Source of the DNA: Candidatus Omnitrophota bacterium | GTDB lineage: Bacteria; Omnitrophota; Gorgyraeia; JABMRN01; RBG-13-46-9 | Assembly (NCBI GenBank): GCA_013203315.1 | Contig: JABMQJ010000020.1 | Coordinates: 6,774-70,773, forward strand | Direction of reading: 5' to 3' | Length of the DNA: 64,000 bases | Part shown: positions 19,921 to 60,548 of the stretch, in pieces | How positions within the stretch are numbered: position 1 is the first letter of the stretch | Layout of the letters: every line of letters begins with the position of its first letter | The notes under the pieces: model-generated | The model's input: only the letters and a program-made list of their open reading frames with translations | Database searches by the model: none | What the model was told of the DNA's origin: nothing | Position numbers and translations under genes: made by a program

Positions 19921-20077
19921 AACCGGCCCTTTTGTAATAGAACCCGCTCAATTACGCAGATTGTTCTCACATAATCATATAATAGCATAATCTCTATCAT
20001 AAATGGTAACGTAACCTTAATAATACGATGAAAGTTATGTAACAAAATGTAGCAGATGAGAGGACATTTTTCACTGT

Positions 20078-24200: not shown

Positions 24201-24204
24201 AGAT

Positions 24205-25185: not shown

Positions 25186-25190
25186 AAAAA

Positions 25191-26210: not shown

Positions 26211-26232
26211 CTTTTTCCTTTTTAATTTTCGT

Positions 26233-27648: not shown

Positions 27649-27666
27649 TGTAGGGAAACGGTTGTG

Positions 27667-30232: not shown

Positions 30233-30244
30233 ATTTTCCTAAGA

Positions 30245-34357: not shown

Positions 34358-34392
34358 ATATCAGCAAGTAGCATTTTTTAAACGTCTTCATC

Positions 34393-41843: not shown

Positions 41844-41886
41844 GTTATCTTACTCGCCTAAAACTGCTTTGGTCTTTGGTGGCAGG

Positions 41887-42948: not shown

Positions 42949-42979
42949 TCCCGATCACCCTCCGTTCGATTTGTTCGGC

Positions 42980-43720
42980 TTATTTGCCAATTCTTAAGTT
43001 GTCGATGTACACCGGGCCTTTGTAAACCGGCCTCTTATTCGATTCCACTCTTACGACAATCTTTCTTATGTCTTGTCTAAATGTTTCATCGGGAAGTACC
43101 CTTTTCCAGTCGTAGCTACCCGGTCCTATGTCGCCCCTTATCGTAACCCACTCGCCGGGGATAAGAGGGACTGAGCGGGTCATCTCTGTCCATTTCCAGC
43201 TATCCCCCACTGTAAGAATTATCTTTGCCCTTAACCCAAGTGGCGTGTCTTCTGTGATATACACATCTACCGCGATTTCCCTGTAAGGGCTGAAGTCGAA
43301 ATACTGTTCGTGCTCTATAATAGCTGCGCTCCATATTCTTCCCGGGAAGTTAGAGTTTACTTTAAGGCTTGAATTTCCTTCGCTTGCCACATCGCTTGAA
43401 ATTTCTATGCTTTCGGCAACGTGGTCATCTTTATCCAGGGCCCACTCGGGAACCTCCCAGCCATCTTCATCTTTTTCAAAACTGAATAAAACCATTTCTT
43501 CGGTTATGGGTTCACGTTCCGCATCCGCGGCGGTATCCTTTTCTTGAGCGGGTGTTTTTGGGGTAGCTTGTGGTTCGGCCTGCGTCGTAGCAGTTTCTTT
43601 TTTAACCGCTATTTTTGCAGAAGGGCCTTTCCCTTTCGGCTCTTCGGCTTTACCGCAACCCGAGGATATGATAGATAAAGATATAATAAGTGCTAAATAA
43701 TAAAAGACTTTTTTTCGCAT
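42980..43720 (-). CDS. secreted lipoprotein, CBM-like beta-sandwich (paralog A)
   Basis: 246 aa. Lipobox 'ISSGCG', low-complexity linker, then a conserved module shared with the next gene ('GLRAKIILTVGDSWKWTEM', 'PVYIDNLRIG'). Confidence 0.4.
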   Translation of the reverse strand: MRKKVFYYLALIISLSIISSGCGKAEEPKGKGPSAKIAVKKETATTQAEPQATPKTPAQEKDTAADAEREPITEEMVLFSFEKDEDGWEVPEWALDKDDHVAESIEISSDVASEGNSSLKVNSNFPGRIWSAAIIEHEQYFDFSPYREIAVDVYITEDTPLGLRAKIILTVGDSWKWTEMTRSVPLIPGEWVTIRGDIGPGSYDWKRVLPDETFRQDIRKIVVRVESNKRPVYKGPVYIDNLRIGK

Positions 43721-43813
43721 GATTCCCCTCTCAAGATTATTTACAAACTGTGGATAGTAGGGGGAGTTTAAACCTCCCCCTACTATTTGTAGCTGTCCGT
43801 ATATTAACGTATA

Positions 43814-44407
43814 TTATTCGCCCAATACGATATTATCTATATAAATCGGGCCGCTATACGCCGGTTTATTTGTTTCGATTCTGATCGCGATTTTTCTTAC
43901 GTCCGCTCTGAATTCATCTGTTGGCTTTGTTCGCCTCCAGTTGGTACTGCCTGGTTTTAGATTTGCTGATATGTGTGTCCATTCACCAGGTTTAAGTCTG
44001 ACTGAGCGGCTCATTTCTGTCCACTTCCAGTCTTCGCCTACCGTAAGAATCATCTTCGCTCTCAAGCCTACGGGCGCGTCTTCCGGCACGTAGATATCGC
44101 ATGCGAGCGTGCTGTATGGCGTCCAATCGTAATACTCCATGATCTCTGCCACAGCGCCGTTCCATCTGTTGCCCGGGAAATTGACAGTTAGTTTAAGACT
44201 GCCTTTTCCGTCATTAGCAACGTCTTTGCTTACATCAAGCTCCTCGCCCAGGTAATCGTCCTGTTCGTAAGCCCAGTCGGGGATTTCCCAACCTTCTGTA
44301 TCTTCGCCTTCAAAGGAAAAAAGCACTTGATCTTCTGCAAAAGTGCTTCCTGATGCGAGGAATACAACTGCTGTAAGCAGTGCCGCTATAAAAAATAGCT
44401 TCTTCAT
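43814..44407 (-). CDS. secreted CBM-like beta-sandwich protein (paralog B)
   Basis: 197 aa with signal peptide. About 50% identical to the C-terminal module of paralog A ('GLRAKMILTVGEDWKWTEM', 'PIYIDNIVLG'). Confidence 0.4.
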   Translation of the reverse strand: MKKLFFIAALLTAVVFLASGSTFAEDQVLFSFEGEDTEGWEIPDWAYEQDDYLGEELDVSKDVANDGKGSLKLTVNFPGNRWNGAVAEIMEYYDWTPYSTLACDIYVPEDAPVGLRAKMILTVGEDWKWTEMSRSVRLKPGEWTHISANLKPGSTNWRRTKPTDEFRADVRKIAIRIETNKPAYSGPIYIDNIVLGE

Positions 44408-44421
44408 ACGTACACCTCCTT

Positions 44422-46053
44422 TTATTCTATTTCCTTATACCACTTCTCTATCACAACTTCAGCTTCTTTATCCCTTATCGGAAAACCTATCGGGCTCCAG
44501 CGCTCCAGCGGGAAATACTGCCATATGTACATTCCCTTAAACCAGCTTCTTTTGCTTAGAACTTCGAGGGCCGCGTCCAAACAATCGGCCTGTTCTTTCT
44601 GGTCCTCCGGATTTGAAAGCGTTGCCCACGGCTGTTTATTCGTTCCGTCGGAACTTACGTATCCGAGCTCTGTAAATATGATCGGTTTATTGAGGTCATT
44701 ATCTTTTAACCATTTTTCTAAAATGTCAGCGTGTTTTTCCCATGCTGCTACTAATTCTTCTTTTGTGGGATCGTTTTTATTTGTCAGCGGAAAATAAGCG
44801 TCTATGCCTATCAAATCTAAGGCGTCCCAGAAAGGCATGTCAATATATTCTGTCCAGTTGGCTGAATATGTAATATACCCTGTGTATATTGCCCTTACGG
44901 AAGCGATAATATCTCGCCACTCTGCGTCCCATGCGTCGAATGAAGTGTTTTCGAGTTCTGTGCCTACTGAGAATATTTCCACGTTATTGTCCTGGGCAAG
45001 TTTTGCGTAGCGGAGAGCTATTTTTTTATAATTTGCAAACCACGCCTTGGTACCTATGATGTCGCCTCTGAATGTACCGTCTTTACAATCTACGTGAGGT
45101 TTAAGAAGTACTTTTATGCCGAGGGCGTGGCATGTCTGGATAGCATGAGCGATTGCACGATCGGTGGGGCTATCGCCGCCTTCAAAATCATGTACAACGA
45201 TTTCTGTTGAATCTACTGCGTCCTGATAAGTCGGAGCCATAATTGCTACGTGTTTTACGCCGATTTTTTTCAAATGAACAAGCATAAGATCAGACGGCAC
45301 AGAACCGAGTTCCCAATCTGTCCATGAGGTATACACAACGCCTTTGTGAAATTCCTCCAAGGTCATCGGTGTGGGTTCTTCTTTTAACTCCGCTATGGCT
45401 GCCGCAAGCTCTTCTTTTTTCTTGGTGAGATCTACTACGGGGGTTTTTCTTTCGGGCTCATCGGGGTTTAAACTCTTTGGGCCATATATCTCGAATTCCC
45501 ATATCGAAACTCCCCAGGTGGAGTTATTTCGCTTAAGGCCGATCATCTTGACGTAACGGGCTTTGATAGGTGAAAATTCTATTTCATCTATAACGCCGTC
45601 CTGTCCTTCCATTAATACGAGTCTCTTCCAGTTTTTATTGTCAAGCGAAGCCAGAATTTCGTAATCTAGCGCGTAGGCTGTTTCCCATCTTATGATTATT
45701 TTACTCAATACCTTTGGTTTGCCTAAATCGAAATAAATCCATTCGTTGTCAACTCCAAGCTGCGAAGACCAGCGTGTGAGTATATCCCCGTCAATAGGCG
45801 CTTTGGAGTTTGGAGGAGGGGCCCAGTCAGGTGTGTCGTCAAAACTTGAGGCAACCGCATCTTCAACCGAGAGATATACAAGAGCGTTCTCTTCGGCAAC
45901 CTCGGTTACTTCTTGTACCTCTTGCGATTCCTGGTTTCCGTATGCGTTCAGCGTGCATCCAACAATAAGTAGGAACGTAATGATATACTTCTTCATATGA
46001 CTCCTTATATTATACCTGGATAAGGCCTTTAAAGTGTAACACGTATGTAACAA
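44422..46053 (-). CDS. secreted discoidin (F5/8 type C)-domain + clan GH-A TIM-barrel glycoside hydrolase
   Basis: 543 aa. N-terminal 'DGDILTRWSS...WIYFDLG' discoidin/CBM32-like. C-terminal 'VGTELE', 'FTELGY' paralogous to the 41887 gene. Confidence 0.5.
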   Translation of the reverse strand: MLHTCYTLKALSRYNIRSHMKKYIITFLLIVGCTLNAYGNQESQEVQEVTEVAEENALVYLSVEDAVASSFDDTPDWAPPPNSKAPIDGDILTRWSSQLGVDNEWIYFDLGKPKVLSKIIIRWETAYALDYEILASLDNKNWKRLVLMEGQDGVIDEIEFSPIKARYVKMIGLKRNNSTWGVSIWEFEIYGPKSLNPDEPERKTPVVDLTKKKEELAAAIAELKEEPTPMTLEEFHKGVVYTSWTDWELGSVPSDLMLVHLKKIGVKHVAIMAPTYQDAVDSTEIVVHDFEGGDSPTDRAIAHAIQTCHALGIKVLLKPHVDCKDGTFRGDIIGTKAWFANYKKIALRYAKLAQDNNVEIFSVGTELENTSFDAWDAEWRDIIASVRAIYTGYITYSANWTEYIDMPFWDALDLIGIDAYFPLTNKNDPTKEELVAAWEKHADILEKWLKDNDLNKPIIFTELGYVSSDGTNKQPWATLSNPEDQKEQADCLDAALEVLSKRSWFKGMYIWQYFPLERWSPIGFPIRDKEAEVVIEKWYKEIE

Positions 46054-46086
46054 AACTGTAAATATTTTGCAACAACTGAACCGCTT

Positions 46087-46944
46087 CTACGGCGTTCCAT
46101 ATTCCTTAAGCCCCTTCATCGTTATCCCTTTCATGAAATACTTCTGGAACAACAGAAAGACGATGAGCATCGGCGTCGTCGCCACCACGGCACCCGCCAT
46201 GATCGTCGCGAATCTCGTGCCGAACTGACTGTTAAGCACGGAGAGGGCGAGCGGCAATGTGCGCATCTGGTTGGAATTTATCACTATGAGGGGCCATATG
46301 AAGCTGTTCCACTGCTGCAGAAACGTTAATATCGCCAGCGTAGCGAGAACCGGCTTTATCAGCGGTAGTATGACGAGGCGGTAGATACCGAACTCGCTGC
46401 ACCCGTCGATCTTCGCCGCATCCACCAAGTCATTCGGTATTGACATTATGAACTGCCTGCATAGGAAAACGCCGAAGACTCCCGCCATGACCGGAACGAT
46501 CAATGCGTTATACGAATTAAGCCAGCCAAGTTTCCTTATCAGGATGAACCCTGAAATGATGTTAACCTGCCACGGTATCATGAGCGAACCTAAGAGTACA
46601 AAAAATATCTTATCCCTACCCCAGAACTTGTGCTTGGCAAATGCGTAGCCCGCTAGCGAGCAGAAGAATAAGTTGGCGATGGTAACGGCAGCTGAGACGT
46701 ATATGGAATTCCAAAGGTACCTCAGTATCGGCATAAGCCGGAAGAGGTTCTGATAAGGCAAGACTGTCGGATGTTTCACTATGAACGAAGGCGGGTACGA
46801 CTGTACTTCTTCGACGGGTTTTATGCTGGTGACGAACATCCAGACATACGGGATCACTATGACGATCGCGCCGAGTGCGAGGAGCGCGTATATCATACTC
46901 TTTGTCGCAACATTCTGGAACCGCTTGCTCTTCAAAATCTCCAT
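46087..46944 (-). CDS. carbohydrate ABC transporter permease (MalG-like)
   Basis: 285 aa, 6 TM. EAA loop 'DAAKIDGCSEFGIYRLVILP'. Confidence 0.7.
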   Translation of the reverse strand: MEILKSKRFQNVATKSMIYALLALGAIVIVIPYVWMFVTSIKPVEEVQSYPPSFIVKHPTVLPYQNLFRLMPILRYLWNSIYVSAAVTIANLFFCSLAGYAFAKHKFWGRDKIFFVLLGSLMIPWQVNIISGFILIRKLGWLNSYNALIVPVMAGVFGVFLCRQFIMSIPNDLVDAAKIDGCSEFGIYRLVILPLIKPVLATLAILTFLQQWNSFIWPLIVINSNQMRTLPLALSVLNSQFGTRFATIMAGAVVATTPMLIVFLLFQKYFMKGITMKGLKEYGTP

Positions 46945-47059
46945 ATCGCTCGTTTTCCTCTAAAGATATTATCTACCACCCAAACACCGGTCTATTATAT
47001 CAAAAACTATGTAAAAAGATATAAAAACATTATAATACCAAAAGATCACATAAATAATG

Positions 47060-48709
47060 TCATTTTGTCATAGCATTTGAACTCTCGATCAACCTCGGCA
47101 TTACCTTCTCAATCCCTATCCGCACCATTTCCCTCGCTCTACTTTGTGAATCCGCAATAGCATAAATCCTGAACTCCGGTGCGTTCCCGGATGGCCTGAG
47201 ATGTGATATCTCACCATTATCAAAAAGCATTCTTATGCCATCTGTATAATTTACATTTTCAGGCTTCCCAAAACCGTCATGCTTAAGAAATGCTTCTTCT
47301 ATTCTCTTTTTAATAGATTCTCTTTCTTCCGGGTCTTCCAAATCTTTAGGGGTTAGAAAACTCATTATAGCTTTGCCCATTTCTATAGGAAATTCTTTTT
47401 TTCTATCTGCATGCGTAAACCGCAAACGAAGTGTTTTTATTAATTCTGAAACGCCTGATCCGCTTTTTACGACCAGATGTATAACGCTTAAAAGCGGAAG
47501 TACTGCGTCTCTGGTAGGTAAGGCTTTAAGGGTTTTATTTCCGATCGTAAGATCGGTTCCTGTTAAAAAACCACCGTTCGATTCCCATGAAACCACGTTC
47601 CATTTACCTGAATGACTTTGAATAGAATCATTCATTGCGGCAACAACAAAAGGTGACCCAATCTTGGTTTGGGTAAGTTCTATGCCTTTGTCCTTACAGA
47701 TCTTTATAATAGAATCATTTGCGCTAACAGGTACACACGCGGCATCTATCTTTATATTCAAATCTTGTAAACCCAACATAGCAAGTAATCCTAAAATATC
47801 ACCGGTTATATATTTTACATTGTCGGTCGGCCTACCTTCTTCATATTCCCTGTAAACCAGAAGAGGCCTATCTGAATCACCGTCTAGAGTTACGCCGATA
47901 TCGAGATCATTGCTCGCGAGAACCTTGTTAAAGATACTTAAAGTCTTATCGGACACACTTTCAGTATCAACCGGAACGAACCTCTCACTTCTTAAAGGTT
48001 CGTTGCCTATCTTAATATCTGGAGCAAAGACTTTTGCACCTAAACTTTGGAAGATCTCTTTTACGATGTCCCTGCCTACGGCAGAATGTTGATATAAAAA
48101 TATCTTTGTCCCTCGAGGAAAAAATTCGTTCCCGAACGCACACTTGTACCTATCTATATAAATTTGACCGGACTCGCCTGTATAAGATTCAGCTTTTAAT
48201 AATTTATTAAACTCAGATTCAAATTTTGCCTTAAAGGCGCCCTTTTTATCAAATATTGACTTCTTTTCGGAAGCAGAATAAACTTTTGTTCTTTCTTTTC
48301 TTACATTTTCCAAAATACCAGGCTCATCCGATTTTAATATCTCTCCGGTCTCTCTTGTAAACTTTATACCGTTCCTATCCACCGGTATATGGCTGCCTGT
48401 AACCATAATACTGGCCATATTATTCTGCATTGCATAATTTGCTAATGCAGGGCTGGGAACCTGCCCTTGATCGTCTACTATACCGCACATATCAGCGATA
48501 GCAGCCGAAACAGCCCTTTTTATCCTATACGTACTGGGCCTTCTATCTCCGGCTAAAGCTACAGTATCACCTTCTTTAAATTCTCCGCATGTCTTAAGAT
48601 ACGCGATAAAACCCCTTGCATTAATGAAACACTCCATATCGGTCATATTTTCGACCGTATCTCTTAAGCCGCTTGTACCGAATTTTAATTCTTTAAATTT
48701 CGCGTTCAT
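47060..48709 (-). CDS. alpha-D-phosphohexomutase (phosphoglucomutase/phosphomannomutase family)
   Basis: 549 aa. 'TGSHIP' active-site Ser loop. 'LDGDSDRP' metal-binding loop. Confidence 0.65.
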   Translation of the reverse strand: MNAKFKELKFGTSGLRDTVENMTDMECFINARGFIAYLKTCGEFKEGDTVALAGDRRPSTYRIKRAVSAAIADMCGIVDDQGQVPSPALANYAMQNNMASIMVTGSHIPVDRNGIKFTRETGEILKSDEPGILENVRKERTKVYSASEKKSIFDKKGAFKAKFESEFNKLLKAESYTGESGQIYIDRYKCAFGNEFFPRGTKIFLYQHSAVGRDIVKEIFQSLGAKVFAPDIKIGNEPLRSERFVPVDTESVSDKTLSIFNKVLASNDLDIGVTLDGDSDRPLLVYREYEEGRPTDNVKYITGDILGLLAMLGLQDLNIKIDAACVPVSANDSIIKICKDKGIELTQTKIGSPFVVAAMNDSIQSHSGKWNVVSWESNGGFLTGTDLTIGNKTLKALPTRDAVLPLLSVIHLVVKSGSGVSELIKTLRLRFTHADRKKEFPIEMGKAIMSFLTPKDLEDPEERESIKKRIEEAFLKHDGFGKPENVNYTDGIRMLFDNGEISHLRPSGNAPEFRIYAIADSQSRAREMVRIGIEKVMPRLIESSNAMTK

Positions 48710-48790
48710 TCTTTAACCTATTAAAATTAGGGACAGGCACCTTTAATTCTATTAAAGATATCTGTCCCTAATATTTACTTGAGAGTTTTT

Positions 48791-50260
48791 TTAAACCTTG
48801 CCTCTGCGATCTTCAAGCCTTCTGCGGTTTTCCTTGACTCTTTCTTTTGTCAGCTGTACGCGTGAAATAAAAATAATAGCAATAATCAAACCCGCGACCG
48901 GCAAAGCAGCTAAAGAGAAGCGTAGCCAGAATATGGTTTGAGGCGCCTGTATCTGAAGTTTCCAAGTAAAACCTGACCATCCTATAATGAAGCCAGAAAA
49001 TATAACTCCTAATGAATTTCCCAGTTTAAGCATATAAGAAGCACAGGCGGTAAAAGAACCTTCCCTTCTTTCCTGCGTTTTAAGTTCATCGTGGTCAATA
49101 ATGTCGGCGCCGATGGAACTATGCAGCATCCAGATAGAAGCCGCAGACATTCCCATCAAACCAGACGCGATCGTCTGGAGCCACTGGATTGCCGGCGTAT
49201 ACAGAAACCATGAACCACCGTAACCACATATGCCTACTAGACAGGCTACAATTAAAGCTCTTCGTTTGCCAATCCTATGTGACATAGCTCCATGGATTGG
49301 AACTCCTAAAAGGCCTCCCAGCATAAAAGCCACGCCCATCCATACCTGCCAATTATTTCCGACAATTTCGTTTCCGCCTGCTACATAAAAACGCGTTACA
49401 TAGTAACCAAGCGAACCCACCATGCTCGTGCCTAAAGTAAAAGCAATACCCACAACCATCATCTTGCGGAACGGCATGCATCTAAGGGTTTCACCTAAAC
49501 CAGCCAGAATGGAAATTTTCTCTTTAACCTTTACCACCACTTTATCATAGTAACGTTCTTTAACTCTGAAAAAAATGATTATGGCGAAAATAGCCATTAC
49601 AGCACCCAGTATCATTGTATACACCCGCATTGCCAGGAGAGTATTCTGTTTTCCTGTTCCCGGGATAAGAAACCAGGCCAGAGTAGTAAACTTAAAAGCA
49701 AAGAAATTGCCCAATTCTGAAATCTTTTGGGCGACGCTCCGATAGGACATGATAGAGGTGCGCTCTTCATAATCAGGCGACATTTCCGCGCCTAAACTGT
49801 AGTACGGTATGGTAAAAGCGCTGATTATGGGGATATAAATCATGTTGGAAAGTAAAATGTACCAAAACACCACGGATACGCCGAGGAATTTTATCCCCAC
49901 CCAGGCCGGCGACATCATAAACAAGATCGGCAGGCCTAGTCCACTTAAAATACCGGCGATTAAAATAAAAGGGCGCCTGCGGCCCCATTTGGAACGCAAG
50001 TTATCGGAGAGCCACCCCACCACAGGATCAATAAAGGCATCAAATATTCGGACTAATCCAACACCCAAGCCCACCAGCCATGGGTCAATACCTAAATACA
50101 AGTTAAACACCATATAAGCAACCCCCGCGTACAACCAGAGGCCCCACATATCAACTGCAGTACCGATACTGTAAGCCGCTTTGGTGAGGATAGGAAGCCG
50201 ATCTCGCGGAGCCCATCTCCTATCATATTTTCTTTTATCAGCAGGAATAGGTGTTTCCAT
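48791..50260 (-). CDS. MFS/GPH-family glycoside:cation symporter
   Basis: 489 aa, 12 TM. 'LSDNLRSKWGRRRPF' GPH signature between TM2 and TM3. Confidence 0.6.
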   Translation of the reverse strand: METPIPADKRKYDRRWAPRDRLPILTKAAYSIGTAVDMWGLWLYAGVAYMVFNLYLGIDPWLVGLGVGLVRIFDAFIDPVVGWLSDNLRSKWGRRRPFILIAGILSGLGLPILFMMSPAWVGIKFLGVSVVFWYILLSNMIYIPIISAFTIPYYSLGAEMSPDYEERTSIMSYRSVAQKISELGNFFAFKFTTLAWFLIPGTGKQNTLLAMRVYTMILGAVMAIFAIIIFFRVKERYYDKVVVKVKEKISILAGLGETLRCMPFRKMMVVGIAFTLGTSMVGSLGYYVTRFYVAGGNEIVGNNWQVWMGVAFMLGGLLGVPIHGAMSHRIGKRRALIVACLVGICGYGGSWFLYTPAIQWLQTIASGLMGMSAASIWMLHSSIGADIIDHDELKTQERREGSFTACASYMLKLGNSLGVIFSGFIIGWSGFTWKLQIQAPQTIFWLRFSLAALPVAGLIIAIIFISRVQLTKERVKENRRRLEDRRGKV

Positions 50261-50304
50261 TCGTTTTCTCCTTTTTGAAAATTTTGCCTTAAAAAATTCT
50301 CATA

Positions 50305-51288
50305 TTAGCGATTATAACATGCATCGATAAGACGCTCTACGCTTGTGGTAGCCACGCATTGAACGTTATCGGCGCCGCCGTAATAAAGTTTAACTTCGCC
50401 ATTATCTTCCACTACAGCGCCAGAGGTAAACACGACGCTCGGAGTTTGCCCCACAAGTTCATACATCTCCTCGGGAATCAAGATTGCGTCTTTAGCCATG
50501 GCCTTAACTTTTGCCGGATTCTCCAGATCCAAAAGACAGACACCCAATTGATAAACATAATGCGCTTTACATTGAATACGCACTCCGTGAAAAATATTAA
50601 GCCATCCTTCGGGTGTTTTAATAGGAGTGGCCCCTGGTCCGACCTTTGTCCAGGCCCAGTTAATCCCTTCCCAGTTCCTGAACACGCATTCACTCTTTCC
50701 CCAAAAGATCAAATCCGGGGAATAAGATACCCAGACATCCCCCGTAGGGTTTCCGGTATTGGGCCGGTCAAGGCGCGCGTAGAGTCCGTTGATTTTCTCA
50801 GGGAAAAGCACGCCATTTCGGTTATCTGGTTCAGAAATAAAGCCCATCCACTCGAATTTCTTAAAGTCATCTGTCTTCACCAGGCTGAGGCGACAGGTAT
50901 GGCCTGAGTGGCCGGCATGTACTATATAATATGTATCCCCGATTTTTGTTATGCGCGGATCATAATACATGCTCGAGGTATACTCCTTAAACATCGGATC
51001 ATCATGGGGCATAGGCACCGGTTTTGGCCGCGGTTTAAAATTAAACCCATCCTTGCTTTCGGCAATCCAAAAACGGTCAGACAAAGCGGAATTCTCCACC
51101 CGGCAAACCATTGTATAAATACCTTTGTATTTTATGATGCCGGAATTAAAAACATGCTTAATATCTGCCTCAGGGGGGAAATTCTTGCCTGTCAAGATAG
51201 GATTCCCCTCATACCGCTTGCATATAGGATACTTGCTTGTTTTCATGTCAAATTTCCTCTCTTTTTGTACATTGTTTTCATTGTGCAA
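50305..51288 (-). CDS. GH130-family beta-mannoside phosphorylase
   Basis: 327 aa, 5-bladed propeller family. 'YEGNPILT', 'VFNSG', 'DPRITKIGDTYYI' match GH130 conserved blocks. Confidence 0.55.
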   Translation of the reverse strand: MHNENNVQKERKFDMKTSKYPICKRYEGNPILTGKNFPPEADIKHVFNSGIIKYKGIYTMVCRVENSALSDRFWIAESKDGFNFKPRPKPVPMPHDDPMFKEYTSSMYYDPRITKIGDTYYIVHAGHSGHTCRLSLVKTDDFKKFEWMGFISEPDNRNGVLFPEKINGLYARLDRPNTGNPTGDVWVSYSPDLIFWGKSECVFRNWEGINWAWTKVGPGATPIKTPEGWLNIFHGVRIQCKAHYVYQLGVCLLDLENPAKVKAMAKDAILIPEEMYELVGQTPSVVFTSGAVVEDNGEVKLYYGGADNVQCVATTSVERLIDACYNR

Positions 51289-52362: not shown

Positions 52363-55300
52363 TTACAGCGAGCTCATGGTTTGGGATTCGCATCTGCGGA
52401 AGTCGCTCATAGCAGTGTCTGCGTCTTCGAGTTCGATGTCCGGTAGCACGAGTACGAAGGAGCCATTAAGTAGTTCGCTGAGTTTTTCGATGTCGGCCAG
52501 TTGCAATTCGGCTTTTAAGGAGTCGTAGTTTTTCCTGGTCAGTCGGTTAATGGATTCGATTATCGCGTTTACGGTAGCGCTTATGCTTCCCTCATCTCCG
52601 TTTCCTTGTTTTTTGAAGTCTATGAGTTTCGCCATTAAGAGTCCGATCTGCATCTGTGGCACAGCAGGCACATATTCGCCCTGTAGGGCGGCTATGTGCG
52701 CACCAAGTTCGCGTAATGACGCTAATCTGGCCTGGTATTCACTGGCATCTTTTCGTCTGTCGTCTTTTAATATCCACGTAAATACTGTTTCCTGCGGGTT
52801 TGCGGCTTTTATGCCTTCGATATCGGTTACAACCTTATCCATCCTTGCCATGTTCTCATCCGAAGTTGTCCCGTCGTCAACGTAAACAAGGAACTTTATC
52901 GGGCCGGATTCGTTCTCTATGTTCATCCACTTGGCCATGCGATTTCCGGAAGTCTTGAGTCTATTCGCGAAGCTATTGCACTCGCTTAAAACCGAAAACT
53001 TATCCGATTCCGACTTCACAGCCACGACTACAGTACATGGCGGTATCATGCCAACTGCCTCTACAGCTTTTTGGCCTTGCTTAATAGTTTCCTCGAGATG
53101 CTCACGGTCCATAGGTGGGGTAACCATTTTGGGTGCGAAACCATAATCTCCGGTGTCTACGCGAGGCGATTCTTCGACAGGTGCTTGTTTCACCGCGAAT
53201 TCGGGTGGACCAGGAGTAGTAGCTTTTTTCCTTTGATATTTATAAAATGTACACGCTTCAATATACTTACTAAGAGTTATTGGGACTGTTTTTGAATCAA
53301 TTATTTCTAAACCCTGAAGCGGAATTGCATTATCTGACCCTTGTCTTAAAATAACTAATTTTGCATCCTCTCTAAGCCCACGCTCAGGATGACTCATTAT
53401 GGCGTTTAGCTGGTCAAGGAATTCCTGTTTATTTTGGTCTGGCTCCGGATAATATAAATATACGATATCATATTCTGAGAAATCTACGTTAGCATTGAAT
53501 ATATCTTTGTGTTCAAAATGCACTCTATTTACGACTTCGGTTAAATTTGAGGCAACTTCCGGATCTAGAGTTCCGTCAAAGTTACGCGCGATCATGTTTA
53601 AAAACCACTGCCTAACGCTATTACTTACTAAGAACAAAGATTCTTCTACTTCCATGCCATCTACAGAAGCGCCGTACGAGGCCATCTTATACGCTGTTGA
53701 CCCATCGCCTGAGCCAAATTCAAAGACTTTTGTGCCATTTTTGATTTCGGCAAATTCTGCTAATTCATCAAATATCTCATTAAAAGTAATTTGAAATTTT
53801 CCATACTTAACATTTGTCAATTCGTCGATAGTTACATTATTGGTCCCGGGAATTTCCTGTGCCCATCCTAATTTTAAATATAATTCTATATAAAGGTCAT
53901 ATATGCATCTTTTTACTCTTTTTTGTACGGTTTCAGACTGATCAACCATGGGCGTTTTCTGTACATAATCTCCTCGCTTCAATGCTTCGCTGGTTAATGC
54001 ACCATATCTGTCCTCAAATGCTTGCTTCAGGTCATCGGAAATAGCGCGATTTGACATTAATAATCTTCCGAATTTTTTCAGCTTGTGCATATCACCCCTA
54101 GCTGGCTGGCTCGGATCAGCCATATCCGTCGGGCTCATCCAGAGGGCATCTACGATTGTTACAATGATGTGAGGGTAAGGATTGCCTATCACATGTTGTA
54201 CTAAGTTTTCCGCACTTGTAGCCGCATCCTGTGCATGTTCGGTAAGATCGCTTCTTCCGCCACCTTGAGGTGGGAGTGTCGGTTCCGCCGATTCCCGAAC
54301 CGCGGGTTGAGATGGTTCCGGTGCACTGGCTTCTCTATCAGGAAGCCCTACTTCTCCCTCTTCCTTCTTTTCCCATGTTAAAGTTATCCTGGTACCTTTT
54401 TCAACTACAGGATCAGGGGCATCAACGCGCTCTAATCTCAAAGTCGATTCTATCTCTTCGACTATCTCAAGTGAATATTCACCAAACCTTAAACATTTTC
54501 CTCTTTTGACCCATCTTTCGCCTCTTGTCTCAATGGTGACATTATCAGGGAATATAACAATGATTCGCAACCCATAACCCTCATCAGGCCTTTGAATTGT
54601 TCCATCATCCAGCCAGGCGCGATGTGTCTTATCGGTGTTTATGCTTTCTTGCAATAAGGCATCGGGATTTTCCATGCCGGGCCCTTCATCAATGCCTATA
54701 ACTTCAAGTTTTTTCGAACCCCCTGCATCTTCGGTATAGCGTACTTCGATATTGCCGCCCCCGCCATGCATTATAATATTAAATACCATTTCACCACAGG
54801 CATCTGTTATGTCCTTATTGTAAATACCGAGATTTATTGTATTTAAAAATTCATCCAATGCGTCTACAAAAGCTGTGCCCTGCAGTATCGCTCTTTCTCT
54901 ATCCGCTTCCTCGGTAAAGTGCCACGTAAATGCGGGTCCGCCTGCATCTAGTGGAGTAGGTTCGGGTTTTTTCGCCATCGAAAGTATGCCGGCACTGCGA
55001 AGCTGTGTTAGTAATGCCTCTGCTCTTGCTGTATTAGATTCACCGAGGTGCACGCTAATGGCCTGAATAGCTTCATCTCTTTCAATTCCACCATCTGCCC
55101 TATCCAACATCACAGCTGCTACTATATTACGCAATACCGGATCCTCCGGATAATTCTGCATGAATGTATCTAAAAGATCTCTTCTATCAGCGGGAAGTTG
55201 TGCGTAATAATCTTGTGCCGCCGCCAATTCCCGAGGCGCGGCTTCGTCTGGCTTTATTTCGCCCGGGCTATATTCAGTGGTGCCTTCCACTGTAAAGAAA

Positions 55301-58300
55301 CTGTGAAATCCTTCTTTTTCTTCTATCGGTTCAATTTTACCCAGTTCATGATCCGGGTGAAACCTTGTAATCGCAAGGATTACCCCGACATAATGCGTGT
55401 TATTGATTACAATTTCATAGCGCTCCCATTGTTTGTGCTCTCCTCTTTCTGGTTTGAAAAATGTGTCTATAGCCTGCTCTGCTGATGCCTGTTTTGGAAT
55501 CTTTATTTCGACAAGCCATTCTTCAGTTTTTCCTGTTTCATTTTCTCTGCTTATGACCATGTCTGCTTTTACGCTTGTCCTACTACTATCTAAGGGTCTT
55601 TTTGGATCACCAATGTCGACACGTACAGTTTTCTCAAATTCTTCTACGCGCGCTCCCGTATTTTCTAAGGCCGATGCAACCTTTAAAATATCCCTTAACT
55701 GCCTTCTATTTAATTTGTTGAAGCCTTTTATGCGCTGGTATCTATCAATAAGCGCTTGCATTTCTGCATCTACCGCCTCCGCCGATTCCCGATCCGCGGG
55801 TTGACCTGTCTCGGTATGCACCTCATCGACCGGCTCTCCTCTAAGCGCTCTCACGAATTGTTTTAAATCAGATTTAGGGTGTTTTTTGGAGAAGGAGAGG
55901 GCTAGATTTAATGCATCATCAAGCACTACAAGCCCCGTAACTACAATGGCTATTACTTTTGTATATAAAGGTGCCGCGAATAAAGGCATTTCAAAAAATA
56001 GGTCATGTGTTAAGAAGAGTGTTAGAAGCACTTGTATAAGCGTAATCGCATAAGGCGCTATTGCTACTAATGCCGGGTGCTTGAAGCTTTCTCCCTTTGT
56101 TGCTTTGTATACACCTTCGTTAAAATCGATTTCTCCTCTAAATCGATCAACCATTGCGTGCCTTGCTTCATGCCATGTCATTTGAAGCCAGGCAAGGAGT
56201 TTTCCTATAACCGGTATCTTCTGCCAGAAGCCACGGGTTAGGGTGGGTACTTCGCCCTCTGCCTCCGGTGCGGCGGAGTTTTTGAAAATAAAGTATATTC
56301 CTTCGGCAAATATAACGCCTGCGTCATTCTCAATTTCTTTTGATATTCTTTCTCTTTCAGAATCTTGCCATTCAGTTGGGCCTGCAGAAAATCTAAGCAT
56401 AATCACGCCATCCGGTAAAACCACTTTCCTGGCTATGTCCCGTATTCTTTTCATTCTCAGCTCAGTACTATATTCATAGCTGAAAATGCCGGTTGCTCTT
56501 AGTAAGCAAATTGAATTTGAAGGAATGTGCTCGCCAATCTCTTCGGCATCGATGTTGTATACGCTCACACGCTCTCTTAATTCAGGAAACATGTTCCATA
56601 CATAATTGCCTTCTTCAATGATGGCTTCTTGAGAATAATTCACAAGGTGGTACCGGGAGGCGTTGGGACATTGTTCTGCTATTTCATAGAACTCTGCTCC
56701 TGTGAAACCTAAAATAACTATTTCCCTGTCTCGCGTAAATTCATCCAGGTTGATGCCTGCGCTATTTAAAATGTTATTCTCTCTTTCTACAAACATGGGG
56801 AATGTGATACTTGGATAGAGCGGCTCGGATCCTCCGCGCAATGGCGTAACGAGAAGTTTTCTCCAGCCATCGTTATCCCACTTGAGACCTTCGGGTGGAA
56901 GATATTTTTCTAGCATGTCATCGGTTACAATAGCTACTTTTCTACGCAATCTTTCTCTTACTCTTGCCAATTCTTTTTCGTTTTCAGGTGTGGTGGGTTG
57001 CGGTTCTCCTGTTCGTGCCTCACCTGTTCTCATTCTGAAGAACGCGCGGTGGAAGTCGGAGCGGGAATTGAATGGGTTTAGATTTGCGATTTCTAAGATA
57101 AGGAAGGGGGACATTATTGCAGTAATGGTTGTCCATATGATTAGTGGGTCTATACCGAAGGAATGCATTATAAGGCCGGTAATAAGAGACGGGATACCAC
57201 CTACGCCAAGCACCCCAAGAGGGCCTGCCAAAGTTACGAGCCTCGGGTGCCTGAAACCAGCCCCATGCTTAAGTTCTTCTTTTAGTTGTTCAACTGTATA
57301 ATTTCGGTAATCACGGTAATCAAAGCCCATTAAGAAAGTCCTATATTCTCCACTGAGTCCCTCTACATTGCGCACGGCCCTGGTAAGGTCTCCCTTGTCC
57401 ATTCCTTCGGTAATAGGAATATTATCGATGATGAATGCATCTCTGGTTAGATATTTACCGCCTATGACATAACCGTCTTCATCGCGTAATACAATCACCT
57501 CTCCGTCTCCTCTTCCTGTTATCCAGTCCATAAACCAGTGACTGTTCTCATGTATACGAACTATTCTCTCTGCTAAGCGGTTACTTATGCGGTGGCTTAT
57601 GAAGCGCAGCATGGCATTGGGTAGGGTGTGGACAGCGGCGGGGGAAGGCTTATCGGATCCGCCAAGAAGTTCTTTAATACTTTCGGGGATTTCTATTTCA
57701 ATATCTGGTTTTTGAATGTCGTTCGGGATTTTAGGCTTACCGTAGAACCTAACCTCTTCAGCGTCAGACCTCTGGGCTACACCTAGACATTGGCCGAGGT
57801 TATCATATAGATAGCCTTTTCTTATTTCTAATGTACTGCCTATTGAAGGTACGCTAGAATCTGTATCTGTGACCCTATATTTATTTCTTGAGTCTTTTAT
57901 GTATTCAAGTGTGCACTGTCCGGTTATGTTCTTAGAATCATCTAAGATTGCCACTGTTCCACAAATGTCTTTGTCATATATACCAACATTATCAGATTCT
58001 TGCGTACTATGTGACTTGCCGTCTATTTCTACATTATCAGCAAAATATTTTCTAAAAACATGCAATTCGAACAACCTAGGAGTTGACTTGGTAATTTCGT
58101 CTATATTAAGTGCGACACCAAGCGTAGAGAGCCAGTACAAGCATGTTTGGCTAATACCTTTATTTTGATGCGCCTCCCAGACAGGCGAACCAAATGGTCC
58201 AATAGGATAATATTGACGTAGTTCTATCTTCTTAGCGCGGGAATTGTCCAATCCAATCTTAAAGCTGAACCGGCCTACAGGCTGTGCTTCACCCCTAATC

Positions 58301-60432
58301 GACACAGAGGCCCACACAAGCGCATGTGGATCGTCTCCAATTTTGCAGTCAACATCATAATCAATTATTACATCCGGGCCGCCCATGATATTTGGTATAA
58401 CTTGCGTATGCGATTCATGCTGTAGCCCCCCTCTATCTATCGAAGCTGACTTATACTCTGCTAGCGCAACTTCTACTGCTTCTAGTTTGTCCTGCGCTTC
58501 CGCTAAGTTAATAGGCGTGAGTTCGTGCCCGGGGTCGGCAATTTCGGGTTCGGCTTTTACATATTCGTTATCACTGTCTCGCATAAAGCGTTCCCTTCTT
58601 ACGAGGCGGCCGGTTTCGTCTTTAAACTCCAGCACAAAGTCTTTACCCGCATCGGTTGTGCGTCTTAGGATTACAGCAAGCCTACTTATGTCGGGTTCGT
58701 TTGCGGATACGCCCATTTCACTGAACATGCTCTGTATGGCGAGGGCGCGTGTGGATATAGCATCTCTTATGATCTCTTCTTCCTTTATGAGGCCGCCGCT
58801 TAAGAGCTTAAAGTATGGACGGTTCTTGCGTTTCTTAAATTTAGGCAGGATGCCTATGTAAGAGTAGCCTTTTTTCGCGAGGAGTTTTTCCAAGTTCTTT
58901 CCGTGGAAACCGCCTGTTACTATAATTGCGGCCTGCGGTCGCGGTGGCGTCTGGCGAATCGTTGGACGTTTTGTGTCGGGCGGTTTTTTAAATGCTAATT
59001 CGATATTCTTTAGGAACGCATGGTCGCGTTTGAAGGCAATTTTATAGAATTTCTCGGTCTTTTCCCTGTACGAGTCAAGGCGCTTAATGTCGTCGGGTAA
59101 GTTGGCGTTTATTTTATACTTAGGCGATTCGCGCGTTATAAAGGATGAAAAATGTTTCGTATTTAGAGAGCTTTTGTTTTTAACGTAATAGTCGTAGTCA
59201 CCTCTTGTGATGGAAGCCTTAAATAGGTCTTTTAAGATTGAGAGGCCTTTTGAAAGTGCGTAGAGTTCTTTTTGTGTGTCGTTACCGAAGAGGCTCTCGG
59301 CGATTTCCGCTTCGAGTGTCTCGATTTCGTCAAATAAGGCTTGCTTATCCAGAGATTTAAATTTATCAACATACTTTTTATACTTGAAAAGTTCGGGGCA
59401 TTTTTCACTCACATTGATATATGCGGGCTTTGCCTTTTTAAATAGATACGCGTAAAACTCGGCTGAATCAATGTTACCCTGTTTGAACGCGAGAGACTTC
59501 CTGACAAGAGTTTCTATTTCAGTTTTCGATAGCCTTTTAGACAAACTGTCTATAAGATTATTTCTTTCGGAATTGGTAGTTTTTAAATCTATATCTTTTT
59601 CAAGTGTCGCAAGTTGGATAAAGTTAGAAAAGTTTTCGTATTTTGTTATATCAATCCCGGATTTTTGAGCAGTTTCCGCAAGAGACGCGAGATATTTATG
59701 CAACTCCGATTTCCCACCTGTGAAGGCGCGCTTTTCGTTCTCGAACTCTTTGAGACTGCTTGAGTAGATATCACGCTTTAGATTATTTAAATAATGTTCA
59801 AGCGTTTTTAATATCTCTTCGCGGTGGGTTTTATATTGCAGGCTTTCTCTGTAGGCGCTAAGGTCAGCGAAGTATAGCTTCGGATCTTCAAGGCCCTTCA
59901 AGGTTATTTTTTCAGGGTTCATTATGCCGAATAATTCAGCGCCGGTTACCCTTCCTTCTTTTACGAAATAATCGGCTAGTTTTCCCCTCGAGGTTTTATC
60001 CTTGATATCCGTAAAGACAGAGAGGTCATAGTTTCCGGCGCCACCTTCCAGAAACGCTAAGTCCACGTCGTATTCGGTGTTTAAATAATTTATTATCGAC
60101 TCTATGGATTTCTGGCAACCGTAATCGCAGTGTGAGTCCTGGATGTGGATAATAGTGCGGTTTGTAGTGGCAGTAACGCCAGGTGAACTGGAAGCGTTCA
60201 CATGACCTAAGGAAGGCGGGAGGGTGAAGGTTTCAGGGTTTAGGGTGCCCGGGCCACCGGTCCTGTTAGAGCTGACGCGAGTAAGCTCTAAAGGCTTTTT
60301 GGCGGCCCAGGCAAAGTCTAACGGAAGTGATGTAATAAAAAAGGCAATCGCTGTAATTAAAGCGACTGCCCTAATTGGTCCTTTATGTCGTAATAGATTA
60401 TTATTATGTCGTTTTTGTCTCGCGTCTTCCAT
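52363..60432 (-). CDS. giant (2689 aa) membrane-anchored multidomain protein with GHKL-ATPase-like and two SAM-methyltransferase-like domains
   Basis: Uninterrupted 8-kb ORF. N-terminal TM 'IRAVALITAIAFFITSLPL'. Internal TM clusters (about 57100-57260 and 55920-56100). MTase-like motif I 'IVILGFTGAEF' (about 56700) and 'VFEFGSGDGSTAY' with 'DIVYLYYPEP' (about 53300-53800). GHKL N-box/G-boxes 'NIIMHGGGGNIEV...IGIDEGPGM...GYGLRII' (about 54400-54800). Confidence 0.6.
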   Translation of the reverse strand: MEDARQKRHNNNLLRHKGPIRAVALITAIAFFITSLPLDFAWAAKKPLELTRVSSNRTGGPGTLNPETFTLPPSLGHVNASSSPGVTATTNRTIIHIQDSHCDYGCQKSIESIINYLNTEYDVDLAFLEGGAGNYDLSVFTDIKDKTSRGKLADYFVKEGRVTGAELFGIMNPEKITLKGLEDPKLYFADLSAYRESLQYKTHREEILKTLEHYLNNLKRDIYSSSLKEFENEKRAFTGGKSELHKYLASLAETAQKSGIDITKYENFSNFIQLATLEKDIDLKTTNSERNNLIDSLSKRLSKTEIETLVRKSLAFKQGNIDSAEFYAYLFKKAKPAYINVSEKCPELFKYKKYVDKFKSLDKQALFDEIETLEAEIAESLFGNDTQKELYALSKGLSILKDLFKASITRGDYDYYVKNKSSLNTKHFSSFITRESPKYKINANLPDDIKRLDSYREKTEKFYKIAFKRDHAFLKNIELAFKKPPDTKRPTIRQTPPRPQAAIIVTGGFHGKNLEKLLAKKGYSYIGILPKFKKRKNRPYFKLLSGGLIKEEEIIRDAISTRALAIQSMFSEMGVSANEPDISRLAVILRRTTDAGKDFVLEFKDETGRLVRRERFMRDSDNEYVKAEPEIADPGHELTPINLAEAQDKLEAVEVALAEYKSASIDRGGLQHESHTQVIPNIMGGPDVIIDYDVDCKIGDDPHALVWASVSIRGEAQPVGRFSFKIGLDNSRAKKIELRQYYPIGPFGSPVWEAHQNKGISQTCLYWLSTLGVALNIDEITKSTPRLFELHVFRKYFADNVEIDGKSHSTQESDNVGIYDKDICGTVAILDDSKNITGQCTLEYIKDSRNKYRVTDTDSSVPSIGSTLEIRKGYLYDNLGQCLGVAQRSDAEEVRFYGKPKIPNDIQKPDIEIEIPESIKELLGGSDKPSPAAVHTLPNAMLRFISHRISNRLAERIVRIHENSHWFMDWITGRGDGEVIVLRDEDGYVIGGKYLTRDAFIIDNIPITEGMDKGDLTRAVRNVEGLSGEYRTFLMGFDYRDYRNYTVEQLKEELKHGAGFRHPRLVTLAGPLGVLGVGGIPSLITGLIMHSFGIDPLIIWTTITAIMSPFLILEIANLNPFNSRSDFHRAFFRMRTGEARTGEPQPTTPENEKELARVRERLRRKVAIVTDDMLEKYLPPEGLKWDNDGWRKLLVTPLRGGSEPLYPSITFPMFVERENNILNSAGINLDEFTRDREIVILGFTGAEFYEIAEQCPNASRYHLVNYSQEAIIEEGNYVWNMFPELRERVSVYNIDAEEIGEHIPSNSICLLRATGIFSYEYSTELRMKRIRDIARKVVLPDGVIMLRFSAGPTEWQDSERERISKEIENDAGVIFAEGIYFIFKNSAAPEAEGEVPTLTRGFWQKIPVIGKLLAWLQMTWHEARHAMVDRFRGEIDFNEGVYKATKGESFKHPALVAIAPYAITLIQVLLTLFLTHDLFFEMPLFAAPLYTKVIAIVVTGLVVLDDALNLALSFSKKHPKSDLKQFVRALRGEPVDEVHTETGQPADRESAEAVDAEMQALIDRYQRIKGFNKLNRRQLRDILKVASALENTGARVEEFEKTVRVDIGDPKRPLDSSRTSVKADMVISRENETGKTEEWLVEIKIPKQASAEQAIDTFFKPERGEHKQWERYEIVINNTHYVGVILAITRFHPDHELGKIEPIEEKEGFHSFFTVEGTTEYSPGEIKPDEAAPRELAAAQDYYAQLPADRRDLLDTFMQNYPEDPVLRNIVAAVMLDRADGGIERDEAIQAISVHLGESNTARAEALLTQLRSAGILSMAKKPEPTPLDAGGPAFTWHFTEEADRERAILQGTAFVDALDEFLNTINLGIYNKDITDACGEMVFNIIMHGGGGNIEVRYTEDAGGSKKLEVIGIDEGPGMENPDALLQESINTDKTHRAWLDDGTIQRPDEGYGLRIIVIFPDNVTIETRGERWVKRGKCLRFGEYSLEIVEEIESTLRLERVDAPDPVVEKGTRITLTWEKKEEGEVGLPDREASAPEPSQPAVRESAEPTLPPQGGGRSDLTEHAQDAATSAENLVQHVIGNPYPHIIVTIVDALWMSPTDMADPSQPARGDMHKLKKFGRLLMSNRAISDDLKQAFEDRYGALTSEALKRGDYVQKTPMVDQSETVQKRVKRCIYDLYIELYLKLGWAQEIPGTNNVTIDELTNVKYGKFQITFNEIFDELAEFAEIKNGTKVFEFGSGDGSTAYKMASYGASVDGMEVEESLFLVSNSVRQWFLNMIARNFDGTLDPEVASNLTEVVNRVHFEHKDIFNANVDFSEYDIVYLYYPEPDQNKQEFLDQLNAIMSHPERGLREDAKLVILRQGSDNAIPLQGLEIIDSKTVPITLSKYIEACTFYKYQRKKATTPGPPEFAVKQAPVEESPRVDTGDYGFAPKMVTPPMDREHLEETIKQGQKAVEAVGMIPPCTVVVAVKSESDKFSVLSECNSFANRLKTSGNRMAKWMNIENESGPIKFLVYVDDGTTSDENMARMDKVVTDIEGIKAANPQETVFTWILKDDRRKDASEYQARLASLRELGAHIAALQGEYVPAVPQMQIGLLMAKLIDFKKQGNGDEGSISATVNAIIESINRLTRKNYDSLKAELQLADIEKLSELLNGSFVLVLPDIELEDADTAMSDFRRCESQTMSSL

Positions 60433-60481
60433 TTTGTCTCGCGTCTTTCGGTTTAAGTTATTAAACCTTTAAACAAACTGG

Positions 60482-60510
60482 TGAAAAAAAATACCGGCTA
60501 ACGCCGGTTA
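60482..60510 (-). terminator. intrinsic terminator (downstream copy of tandem pair) after RND gene
   Basis: Minus-strand reading: 'CCGGC-GTTA-GCCGG' followed by 'TATTTTTTTT'. Confidence 0.45.
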
Positions 60511-60520
60511 TACCCCTCCG

Positions 60521-60548
60521 GTAAAAAAATACTGGCTAACGCCAGTAA
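60521..60548 (-). terminator. intrinsic terminator (upstream copy of tandem pair) after RND gene
   Basis: Minus-strand reading: 'CTGGC-GTTA-GCCAG' followed by 'TATTTTTTTA'. The stem differs from the other copy by compensatory C/T + G/A changes. Confidence 0.45.

Follow-up and report, generated by a model that had tools for sequence, protein, structure and literature searches.

We analysed a window of 64,000 nucleotides (nt; the whole stretch of DNA under study) from a Candidatus Omnitrophota metagenome-assembled genome (MAG; GenBank assembly GCA_013203315.1, contig JABMQJ010000020.1), and we focus here on a giant open reading frame (ORF) on its minus strand that encodes a protein of 2689 amino acid residues. 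Upstream of the giant gene lies an AcrB-type RND pump, and downstream of it follow an ABC permease, a GH130 enzyme, an MFS sugar transporter and a phosphoglucomutase (PGM). A preliminary description, made from the letters of the DNA, had presented the product as a membrane-anchored protein that combines a GHKL ATPase-like domain with two methyltransferase-like domains dependent on S-adenosylmethionine (SAM), and had placed the gene between sugar-utilisation and RND efflux genes with an upstream region of its own. This setting was confirmed, and two terminator-like hairpins in tandem separate acrB from the start of the giant gene, implying a transcription unit of its own. The reading that we favour, with somewhat more confidence than doubt, is that the product is an envelope protein with a constant chassis and exchangeable cargo, belonging to a paralogous family centred on the Omnitrophota. 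The features on which the following text draws are listed below in window coordinates, together with the residues of the product (P0002 being its closest relative).

60547-60530 and 60508-60493 (within 60493-60547), minus strand: two tandem terminator-like hairpins, from acrB to the giant-gene start.
52363-60432, minus strand: whole giant ORF, from ATG to stop, 2689 residues plus the stop codon.
60301-60432, minus strand: predicted Sec-type signal peptide or signal anchor with n/h/c build, residues 1-44.
58663-60249, minus strand: family-defining head with a TIKI/TraB/ChaN/erythromycin-esterase-like alpha/beta core, residues 62-590.
57643-58635, minus strand: unassigned region, residues 600-930, of which residues 600-660 alone are common with P0002 among the relatives.
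56992-57636, minus strand: first copy of a unit made of an HExxH motif and a hairpin of transmembrane (TM) helices, residues 933-1147, with H961-E-N-S-H965, D969, TM helices at 1066-1092 and 1097-1115, then NLNPFNSRSD.
56251-56832, minus strand: methyltransferase-fold-like module with degenerate SAM motifs (MTase1), residues 1201-1394, with eight homologous modules, mostly in giant proteins.
55783-56250, minus strand: second copy of the HExxH-TM-hairpin unit, residues 1395-1550, with H1421-E-A-R-H1425, D1429, TM helices at 1455-1480 and 1486-1511, then ...KSD.
55252-55794, minus strand: module B, residues 1547-1727, with three homologues.
54952-55221, minus strand: short shared block, residues 1738-1827, the only part of the middle still common with P0002.
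54244-54963, minus strand: GHKL (Bergerat-fold) ATPase-like module, residues 1824-2063, with about 30 module homologues.
53236-53967, minus strand: class I SAM-dependent methyltransferase (MTase2), residues 2156-2399, with 15 module homologues.
52366-53220, minus strand: conserved C-terminal tail module ending in ...SSL, residues 2405-2689, found in 10 of 72 family members.

The frame of 8.07 kb stays open throughout, as had been described, and its GC content is even along the ORF (43-45%). An identical protein is public as 'MAG: hypothetical protein HQ549_05370 [Candidatus Omnitrophica bacterium]', and the same 2689-residue product occurs on five contigs from three sources, namely JGI metagenome 3300032731, Logan assembly SRR28106079 and the NCBI MAG (two samples are documented, the third source being known as an NCBI MAG only), so that a one-off frame error or a false fusion is very unlikely. 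In comparison with the syntenic gene of P0002 (locus L001), the ratio of nonsynonymous to synonymous substitution rates (dN/dS) was 0.12-0.13 for head and tail, equal to that of the neighbouring acrB, and both ends are thus functional coding sequence under purifying selection. That several genes were falsely fused by an assembly or frame error, or that the ORF is a decaying pseudogene, could be suggested by the lack of a close homologue for the middle as a whole (a homologue word-index search with residues 600-2400 returned the query alone) and by the zero matches that a Pfam scan of the entire protein returned. Set against the five contigs, the open frame of even composition, the low dN/dS of both ends and the fact that relatives of 1.5-4.7 thousand residues with the same head-to-tail layout are common, this account is exceedingly improbable. 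We dropped the assembly artefact on the strength of the five contigs and the purifying selection, and the giant ORF is confirmed as a real gene.

A search of 5.8 billion proteins retrieved 72 homologues of 1480-4679 residues, whose source names are those of Omnitrophota and, for the more distant ones, of Elusimicrobiota and one Chlamydiae MAG. Only residues ~20-590 of the query are common to all of them, at 21-84% identity. Searching one genome per species with two peptide patterns from the head gave 376 confirmed loci, and the best 80 of these all lie in Omnitrophota MAGs (some labelled 'uncultured Planctomycetia'), with up to five copies per MAG; the family that the head defines thus counts at least 72 giant proteins and 376 loci, mostly from Omnitrophota. 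The middles of the family carry very varied Pfam domains, including HATPase_c, several methyltransferase families, TPR/HEAT, radical SAM and HD, as well as protein kinases, phosphoenolpyruvate (PEP)-utilisers, HPr, patatin, helicases, metallophosphatases and PGM.

The part that defines the family is the head, for which an AlphaFold2 model built from 25 sequences (predicted local distance difference test, pLDDT, 86.6; predicted template modelling score, pTM, 0.79) gives an alpha/beta core with a central parallel beta-sheet flanked by helices. In the model, an all-helical insert of ~300 residues (residues ~184-482) splits this core; the 'long helical regions' of the preliminary description do consist of helices, but they are this insert within a TIKI/TraB/ChaN-fold head, and the head itself had been missed. 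Across 64 head sequences H101, E129, G180, R469, G507, G508, H510 and P530 are invariant, with Q98, D99 and Q107 nearly so; the head motifs read IHIQDAHC, LEGG and VTGGFH, and the resulting set is D99-x-H101, E129, R469 and G507-G-F-H510. The catalytic set of RRSP is E3900-x-H3902, E3930, R4001 and H4030, and that of Bcr135 includes H85 and E113 (PMC6254334); the spacing of 28 residues from H101 to E129 is the same in both. At the level of sequence models the support is weak but specific, with sub-threshold matches of two of 25 relatives to PF04187 ('Haem-binding uptake, Tiki superfamily, ChaN'; best E=1.3e-4), while the head of the query matches none of the family Pfam models PF01963, PF04187 and PF05139 at gathering score and a head profile found nothing useful among PDB sequences. 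A Foldseek search of the head model against the PDB gave no significant match, the top matches to the insert being generic coiled coils, and this miss is probably due to the split core. The head thus qualifies for the TIKI superfamily by its fold and its catalytic residues and by no curated sequence model, and taking the predicted structure and the conserved residues together we consider it very probably a hydrolase-like member of the TIKI superfamily whose catalytic set is intact. It differs from the known members of the TIKI/TraB-PrgY-GumN/ChaN/erythromycin-esterase superfamily (Tiki proteases, MARTX RRSP, HopBA1, EreA-C, Bcr135/136 and ChaN) in that the first Glu is replaced by Asp, the core is split by the helical insert, and the head opens a chain of several thousand residues.

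Ahead of the head, the query has an n-region rich in K/R, a hydrophobic core of 19 residues (residues 20-38) and then DFAWA|AKKP. The N-terminal TM anchor noted before corresponds to this hydrophobic segment, although its likeness to a Sec signal peptide had been overlooked. The same build recurs in 64 of 72 members, where a mean of 3.0 K+R against 0.28 D+E precedes a hydrophobic core of ~19 residues and an AxA-like motif often follows, and in the closer subfamily a D-x-A-W-A-A-x-T-P motif is conserved after the core. The N-terminus consequently looks like a Sec signal peptide or anchor. We also observed that the N-termini of a group of relatives (P0003-P0026; ...ITLWSFLF...YDLAWAAxTP...) are conserved far beyond what is seen in generic signal peptides, which hints at a dedicated sorting or processing signal.

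At the other end of the protein, the preliminary description had left a C-terminal region of about 450 residues without recognisable motifs, and this did not stand, since the region holds the conserved tail module. The tail (the last ~285 residues) was detected in 10 of the 72 family members including the query, always at their own extreme C-terminus, and many of the tail-less members may be truncated by contig ends. It has no relative in Pfam, its profile found nothing among PDB sequences, and no relative was detected outside the family. A separate observation concerns its very end, where the pattern ...(R/K)(K/R)x(E/D)xxxxx(S/A)(S/A)L-COOH is found both in the query (window 52366-52400) and at the C-termini of nine relatives and may act as a signal for recognition of the terminus or for secretion.

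The closest relative, P0002, lies at the syntenic locus L001 with RND pump genes upstream, which allowed head, middle and tail to be compared at the nucleotide level. Identity was 93.5% for acrB, 84.4% for the head (residues 1-654) and 85% for the tail (residues 2438-2689). Between them, the block of residues 1738-1827 is still shared (71% by blastp, 79% over 274 nt by blastn, dN/dS 0.32), and the remaining middle has no nucleotide similarity to that of P0002, which instead carries HEAT repeats and a CheR-type methyltransferase. The comparison indicates that the middle has been replaced and has not merely diverged. Synonymous divergence (dS) was 0.58-0.61 for head and tail and 0.24 for acrB (2.4x), and the alleles of the giant gene are accordingly of greater age than the surrounding genome, or undergo exchange more frequently.

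To resolve the middle itself, residues 1200-2399 were used in a full HMMER search of 1.84 billion representatives, which gave 62 matches that split cleanly by module; every cassette finds a separate set of relatives (26-52% identity), most of which sit within other long proteins of up to 6273 residues. The GHKL ATPase-like module that had been proposed was upheld on three counts, being above the Pfam cut-off, having intact N, G1 and G2 boxes, and reaching GHKL proteins of the PDB by profile. Scanned alone, the segment matches HATPase_c_2 (PF13581) with 29.8 bits (gathering cut-off 27.4, E=6.7e-7). The boxes comprise E1881/N1885 (N box), D1915-E-G-P-G (G1) and G1952-Y-G-L (G2), and the GHKL motifs quoted earlier fall at residues 1885, 1912 and 1952. 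Among 15 GHKL homologues N1885, D1915, G1917, G1919 and G1954 are invariant and E1881 is near-invariant, with G1952 absent from the conserved columns listed. The segment by itself found nothing useful among PDB sequences, and a profile of the 15 homologues gave 18 matches, 15 of them to GHKL proteins (histidine kinases, best 4.4e-5, SpoIIAB, Rv1364c and Hsp90). The three boxes are in register with those of histidine kinases and of SpoIIAB.

Like the stand-alone HATPase_c_2 proteins SpoIIAB and RsbW and the catalytic domains of histidine kinases, the module has an N box of the form ExxxNxxxHG, a G1 box DxGxG and a G2 box GxG. Unlike SpoIIAB and RsbW, no STAS or sigma-factor partner was seen, and the module belongs to a divergent clade of its own that is mostly found inside other giant proteins. 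No domain scan returned HisKA or HAMP, and no conserved His was seen by eye upstream in the module sequences; lacking a DHp/HisKA domain with a phospho-acceptor His, the GHKL module is not a classical histidine kinase, and this candidate was dropped. We note separately that HATPase_c_2 passes its gathering score in the isolated segment and went unreported in the Pfam scan of the whole protein. Giant proteins may thus be systematically under-annotated, since whole-chain scans miss domains that are detectable in segments.

The second methyltransferase module, MTase2, was likewise sustained. It has a motif I (VFEFGSGDG), an invariant E after beta-2, GDIF and YDxVYLYYPEP; VFEFGSGDGSTAY lies at residue 2236 and the other motifs quoted in the preliminary description at 2322 and 2357. 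The GxGxG glycines and the acidic residue after beta-2 are invariant or near-invariant in the family of this module, in which GDxF and a family-specific YLYYPEP are also conserved. As a single sequence it stays under every curated cut-off (best 15.7 bits against 27 in Pfam, and 18.6 against 170 in NCBIfam), whereas a profile of 13 homologues against the PDB reached ErmAM (2e-9), 5BXY (2e-6) and a PrmA-like protein (2e-6) among more than 60 SAM-methyltransferases, the top 60 matches all being methyltransferases. Motif I, the acid after beta-2 and GDxF are common to MTase2 and the Erm/KsgA rRNA adenine, PrmA-like or protein-lysine methyltransferases (PDB 5BXY), while YLYYPEP as motif IV sets it apart from the class I methyltransferases compared.

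For the first methyltransferase the earlier claim held in part, with a marginal fold and degenerate SAM-binding motifs. The sequence IVILGFTGAEF, which had been taken as motif I, is found at residue 1238; its loop (ILGFTGAEF) has one Gly that is invariant in the family, beta-2 ends in an invariant Asn, and there is no GxGxG and no acidic beta-2 residue. Seven of ten PDB matches to the module profile are methyltransferases (best E=1.2e-3) and four of nine relatives give sub-threshold Pfam methyltransferase matches, although MTase1 of the query has no direct family match in Pfam. An hhalign comparison of MTase1 with MTase2 revealed no relation. We read MTase1 as a probable methyltransferase fold, marginally supported, with SAM binding doubtful.

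The two clusters of TM helices in the preliminary description are present (residues 1066-1115 and 1455-1511, two helices each), but each belongs to a repeated HExxH unit that had been overlooked. The two copies form an internal repeat, and in an alignment of ten copies H, E, H, D, G, Y, P, S and D are invariant. The profile of the unit found nothing useful among PDB sequences, its alignment found nothing in the homologue word-index search, no structural match to known proteases was obtained, and the unit was not found in the literature searched. The families considered for it were the site-2 proteases and membrane zincins, which combine HExxH with a third ligand motif in a membrane-embedded protease fold. 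Module B, which follows the second copy, likewise found nothing among PDB sequences by profile; by eye it resembles a PD-(D/E)xK nuclease (...VKADMVIS...x20...LVEIKIPK, with ADIVI...VDVK and TDILI...VEVK in homologues), a likeness that was not confirmed. Residues 600-930 have no Pfam or PDB match, and a PDB sequence search with the whole chain found nothing useful. Within them (~58000-58400, residues ~680-810), 'VWEAHQNKGISQTCLYWLSTLG' resembles motif A of GNAT acetyltransferases (Q/RxxGxG/A), for which Pfam gave no match; GNAT domains are common in catalogued giant proteins.

Taken together, these results are the basis of the chassis-and-cargo reading introduced above, for which the data show the anatomy of the protein, its family, the mosaic exchange of the middle at one syntenic locus, purifying selection on both ends and intact nucleotide- and SAM-binding motifs in two cassettes. 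The chassis comprises the N-terminal Sec-type signal peptide or anchor, the TIKI/TraB/ChaN/erythromycin-esterase-fold head with its D99-x-H101, E129, R469 and H510 and its 300-residue helical insert and, in a subset of members, the tail module of ~285 residues. Between head and tail runs a lineage-specific string of cassettes, here the two HExxH TM-hairpin units, the degenerate MTase1, module B, the stand-alone GHKL ATPase- or kinase-like module and the class I MTase2, and recombination would swap the cassettes while head and tail stay. The head may be an active hydrolase (protease or esterase) that the signal sequence would place on the outer face of the cytoplasmic membrane, with the hairpins anchoring the chain in a membrane. 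ATP may be bound by the GHKL module and SAM by the methyltransferases, and these modules would then modify proteins or components of the envelope.

Several points weigh against this reading. The tail is detectable in no more than the ten members mentioned, the HExxH unit occurs in six of 132 proteins compared, and cassette exchange is documented by a single syntenic pair. Topology poses a further difficulty, since a signal peptide followed by paired TM helices would place the entire cargo beyond the cytoplasm, in surroundings that lack ATP and SAM; the same problem has been pointed out for larger giants (West-Roberts et al. 2023, 10.1101/2023.11.21.568195). In addition, K/R residues abound on either side of both hairpins, and short, uncharged loops connect the helices; by the positive-inside rule this suggests cytoplasmic flanks. 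Crude hydropathy and positive-inside counts did not settle the topology, and we lean only slightly towards an exported head.

The charge pattern around the hairpins fits another arrangement, in which the N-terminal segment and the hairpins would do no more than hold the protein at the inner side of the cell's own membrane and all soluble modules, head included, would be cytoplasmic. The GHKL module (as a SpoIIAB/RsbW-like kinase or ATPase) and the methyltransferase would then act on the cell's own proteins in a membrane-bound regulatory or metabolic assembly. The cargo of the family is of a cytoplasmic, cofactor-dependent type (HATPase_c, SAM methyltransferases, radical SAM, PEP-utilisers, HPr, kinases and helicases), and within the TIKI superfamily the erythromycin esterases are cytoplasmic enzymes. 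Giants with TM segments only have also been read as membrane-anchored cytoplasmic architectures (Nielsen & Lui 2026, bioRxiv 10.64898/2026.06.07.730766). However, 64 of 72 members begin with the Sec n/h/c build and an AxA-like site, a K/R-rich N-tail would orient the first TM segment with its N-terminus in and its C-terminus out, the later TM segments are paired and cannot return the chain, and many members have no convincing further TM segment. We regard a cytoplasmic location of the whole assembly as credible but unlikely.

Conserved ends around a variable middle, and a middle that was replaced at the syntenic locus, bring to mind exported toxins as well. In such a scheme the protein would be a multi-effector polyprotein of the MARTX or polymorphic-toxin kind, with head and tail as a chassis for delivery and processing and cassettes that act in a host or prey cell; the TIKI-like head and/or the HExxH units would cut the chain, and the hairpins would insert into the membrane of the partner cell. 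The head-and-tail family would then be a new class of polyproteins in host-dependent Omnitrophota, exported, recombining and equipped with several effectors, in which head and/or HExxH units serve as cis-acting devices for processing or membrane insertion that release or position interchangeable ATP- or SAM-dependent enzymes in or on the partner cell. The signal-peptide-like N-terminus is consistent with this, as are a dS of the ends 2.4x that of the flanking acrB (as expected under allele exchange), the presence of several paralogues per genome, and the occurrence among TIKI-fold enzymes of the proteases Tiki and RRSP and of the type III effector HopBA1; Omnitrophota are moreover regarded as dependent on hosts or as predators, and an action on prey has been proposed for their giant proteins. 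Against it, domain scans were negative for MARTX repeats, a CPD protease, RHS and any known domain of toxins or immunity proteins, the cargo resembles housekeeping enzymes and not toxins, no protease matched the HExxH unit in structure, there is no evidence of cleavage, and no conserved upstream partner gene, such as a dedicated transporter or an immunity gene, was found among 80 loci. We judge both the scheme and the proposed new class improbable, though if true, the protein would offer a small, tractable model for the construction, export and cleavage of the giants of the phylum, of 10-150 thousand residues.

Membership of the MARTX family itself was considered and dropped, as Pfam and NCBIfam returned neither glycine-rich A/B/C repeats nor a CPD and the gene is flanked by an RND pump and by genes for the use of sugars. 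The likeness to MARTX and polymorphic toxins is an analogy of design alone, with conserved ends around an exchangeable central array of enzymes and with the fold of the head found in the MARTX effector RRSP; there is no similarity in sequence or repeats, no CPD, no type I secretion system or immunity gene was seen, and the cargo is not toxin-like.

Returning to an envelope protein with constant ends and exchangeable cassettes, its nearest counterparts are the multi-enzyme giants of the same phylum (the 'Archaeovorin' type of West-Roberts et al. 2023, and the class called 'multi-enzyme metabolic cluster', with Pfam module 1, of Nielsen & Lui 2026). These share with it an N-terminal signal or TM segment, internal TM helices and a vocabulary of domains that includes SAM methyltransferases (5BXY-like ones among them) and HATPase_c, as well as HEAT, TPR, PPDK_N, PGM and radical SAM in the relatives, all within mostly unannotated sequence. 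The protein studied here is 4 to 50 times shorter (2.7 thousand residues against at least 10 and up to 147 thousand), and Pfam found in it no SecA-DEAD, C39 or S8 domains. The preliminary description knew of no characterised protein with this combination of domains; it is true that no member of the class has been characterised experimentally, but the combination of methyltransferase and HATPase has already been catalogued in TM-studded Omnitrophota giants of at least 10 thousand residues (Nielsen & Lui 2026) and is found in the giant Omnitrophota proteins of West-Roberts et al. (2023), which, by the abstract of that preprint, have over 30,000 and up to 85,804 residues and also hold 5BXY-like methyltransferase domains. 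The protein is consequently not a new principle, and on the best reading it is a smaller variant of the catalogued multi-enzyme giants. Neither of the two Omnitrophota papers mentions a TIKI-fold head, a shared tail or a middle that is replaced between syntenic genes.

Giant, TM-studded multi-enzyme proteins are a hallmark of the Omnitrophota for which no mechanism is known in any case, and at 10-150 thousand residues they are nearly intractable experimentally. A protein of 2.7 thousand residues with a recognisable constant chassis offers a compact and tractable entry into this puzzle, with concrete hypotheses that can be tested, and cassette exchange may explain why the giants are unique in sequence yet alike in architecture.

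The region around the start of the gene holds further minor features. The two tandem hairpins, which lie 3' of acrB, are near-identical (ACTGGCGTTAGCCAGT and ACCGGCGTTAGCCGGT, each followed by a T-run), and at the locus of P0002 a gene with a helix-turn-helix (HTH) motif and an ORF of 171 residues are inserted between acrB and the giant gene instead. A perfect direct repeat of 15 nt, AGACGCGAGACAAAA, stands right before the ATG and again from codon 2 (...gaaAGACGCGAGACAAAAtggaAGACGCGAGACAAAAacg...; window 60405-60447, minus strand), with a partial third copy, tAGACGCGAGggg, ~100 nt upstream of the start, for which there is no obvious Shine-Dalgarno sequence. The repeat at the start codon may have arisen by duplication or may have a regulatory role.

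Directly downstream of the giant gene (39672-51288) lies a set for beta-mannan or glucoside utilisation, consisting of GH116, GH113 with a discoidin domain, the GH130 mannoside phosphorylase, the MFS_2 transporter and the phosphoglucomutase; relatives of the giant protein likewise carry PGM and sugar-enzyme domains among their cargo. Elsewhere in the window, a second large ORF of 1497 residues (9611-14104, minus strand) gives weak TPR-like and Cu_amine_oxidN1 matches and is without the head module. A polysaccharide-synthesis cluster at 18526-36162, with a GC content of 0.36-0.40 against 0.43-0.45 elsewhere, encodes a Bac_transf protein, a B12-binding radical SAM enzyme, a flippase, a Wzy-like ligase and a Wzz/GNVR tyrosine-kinase-type protein.

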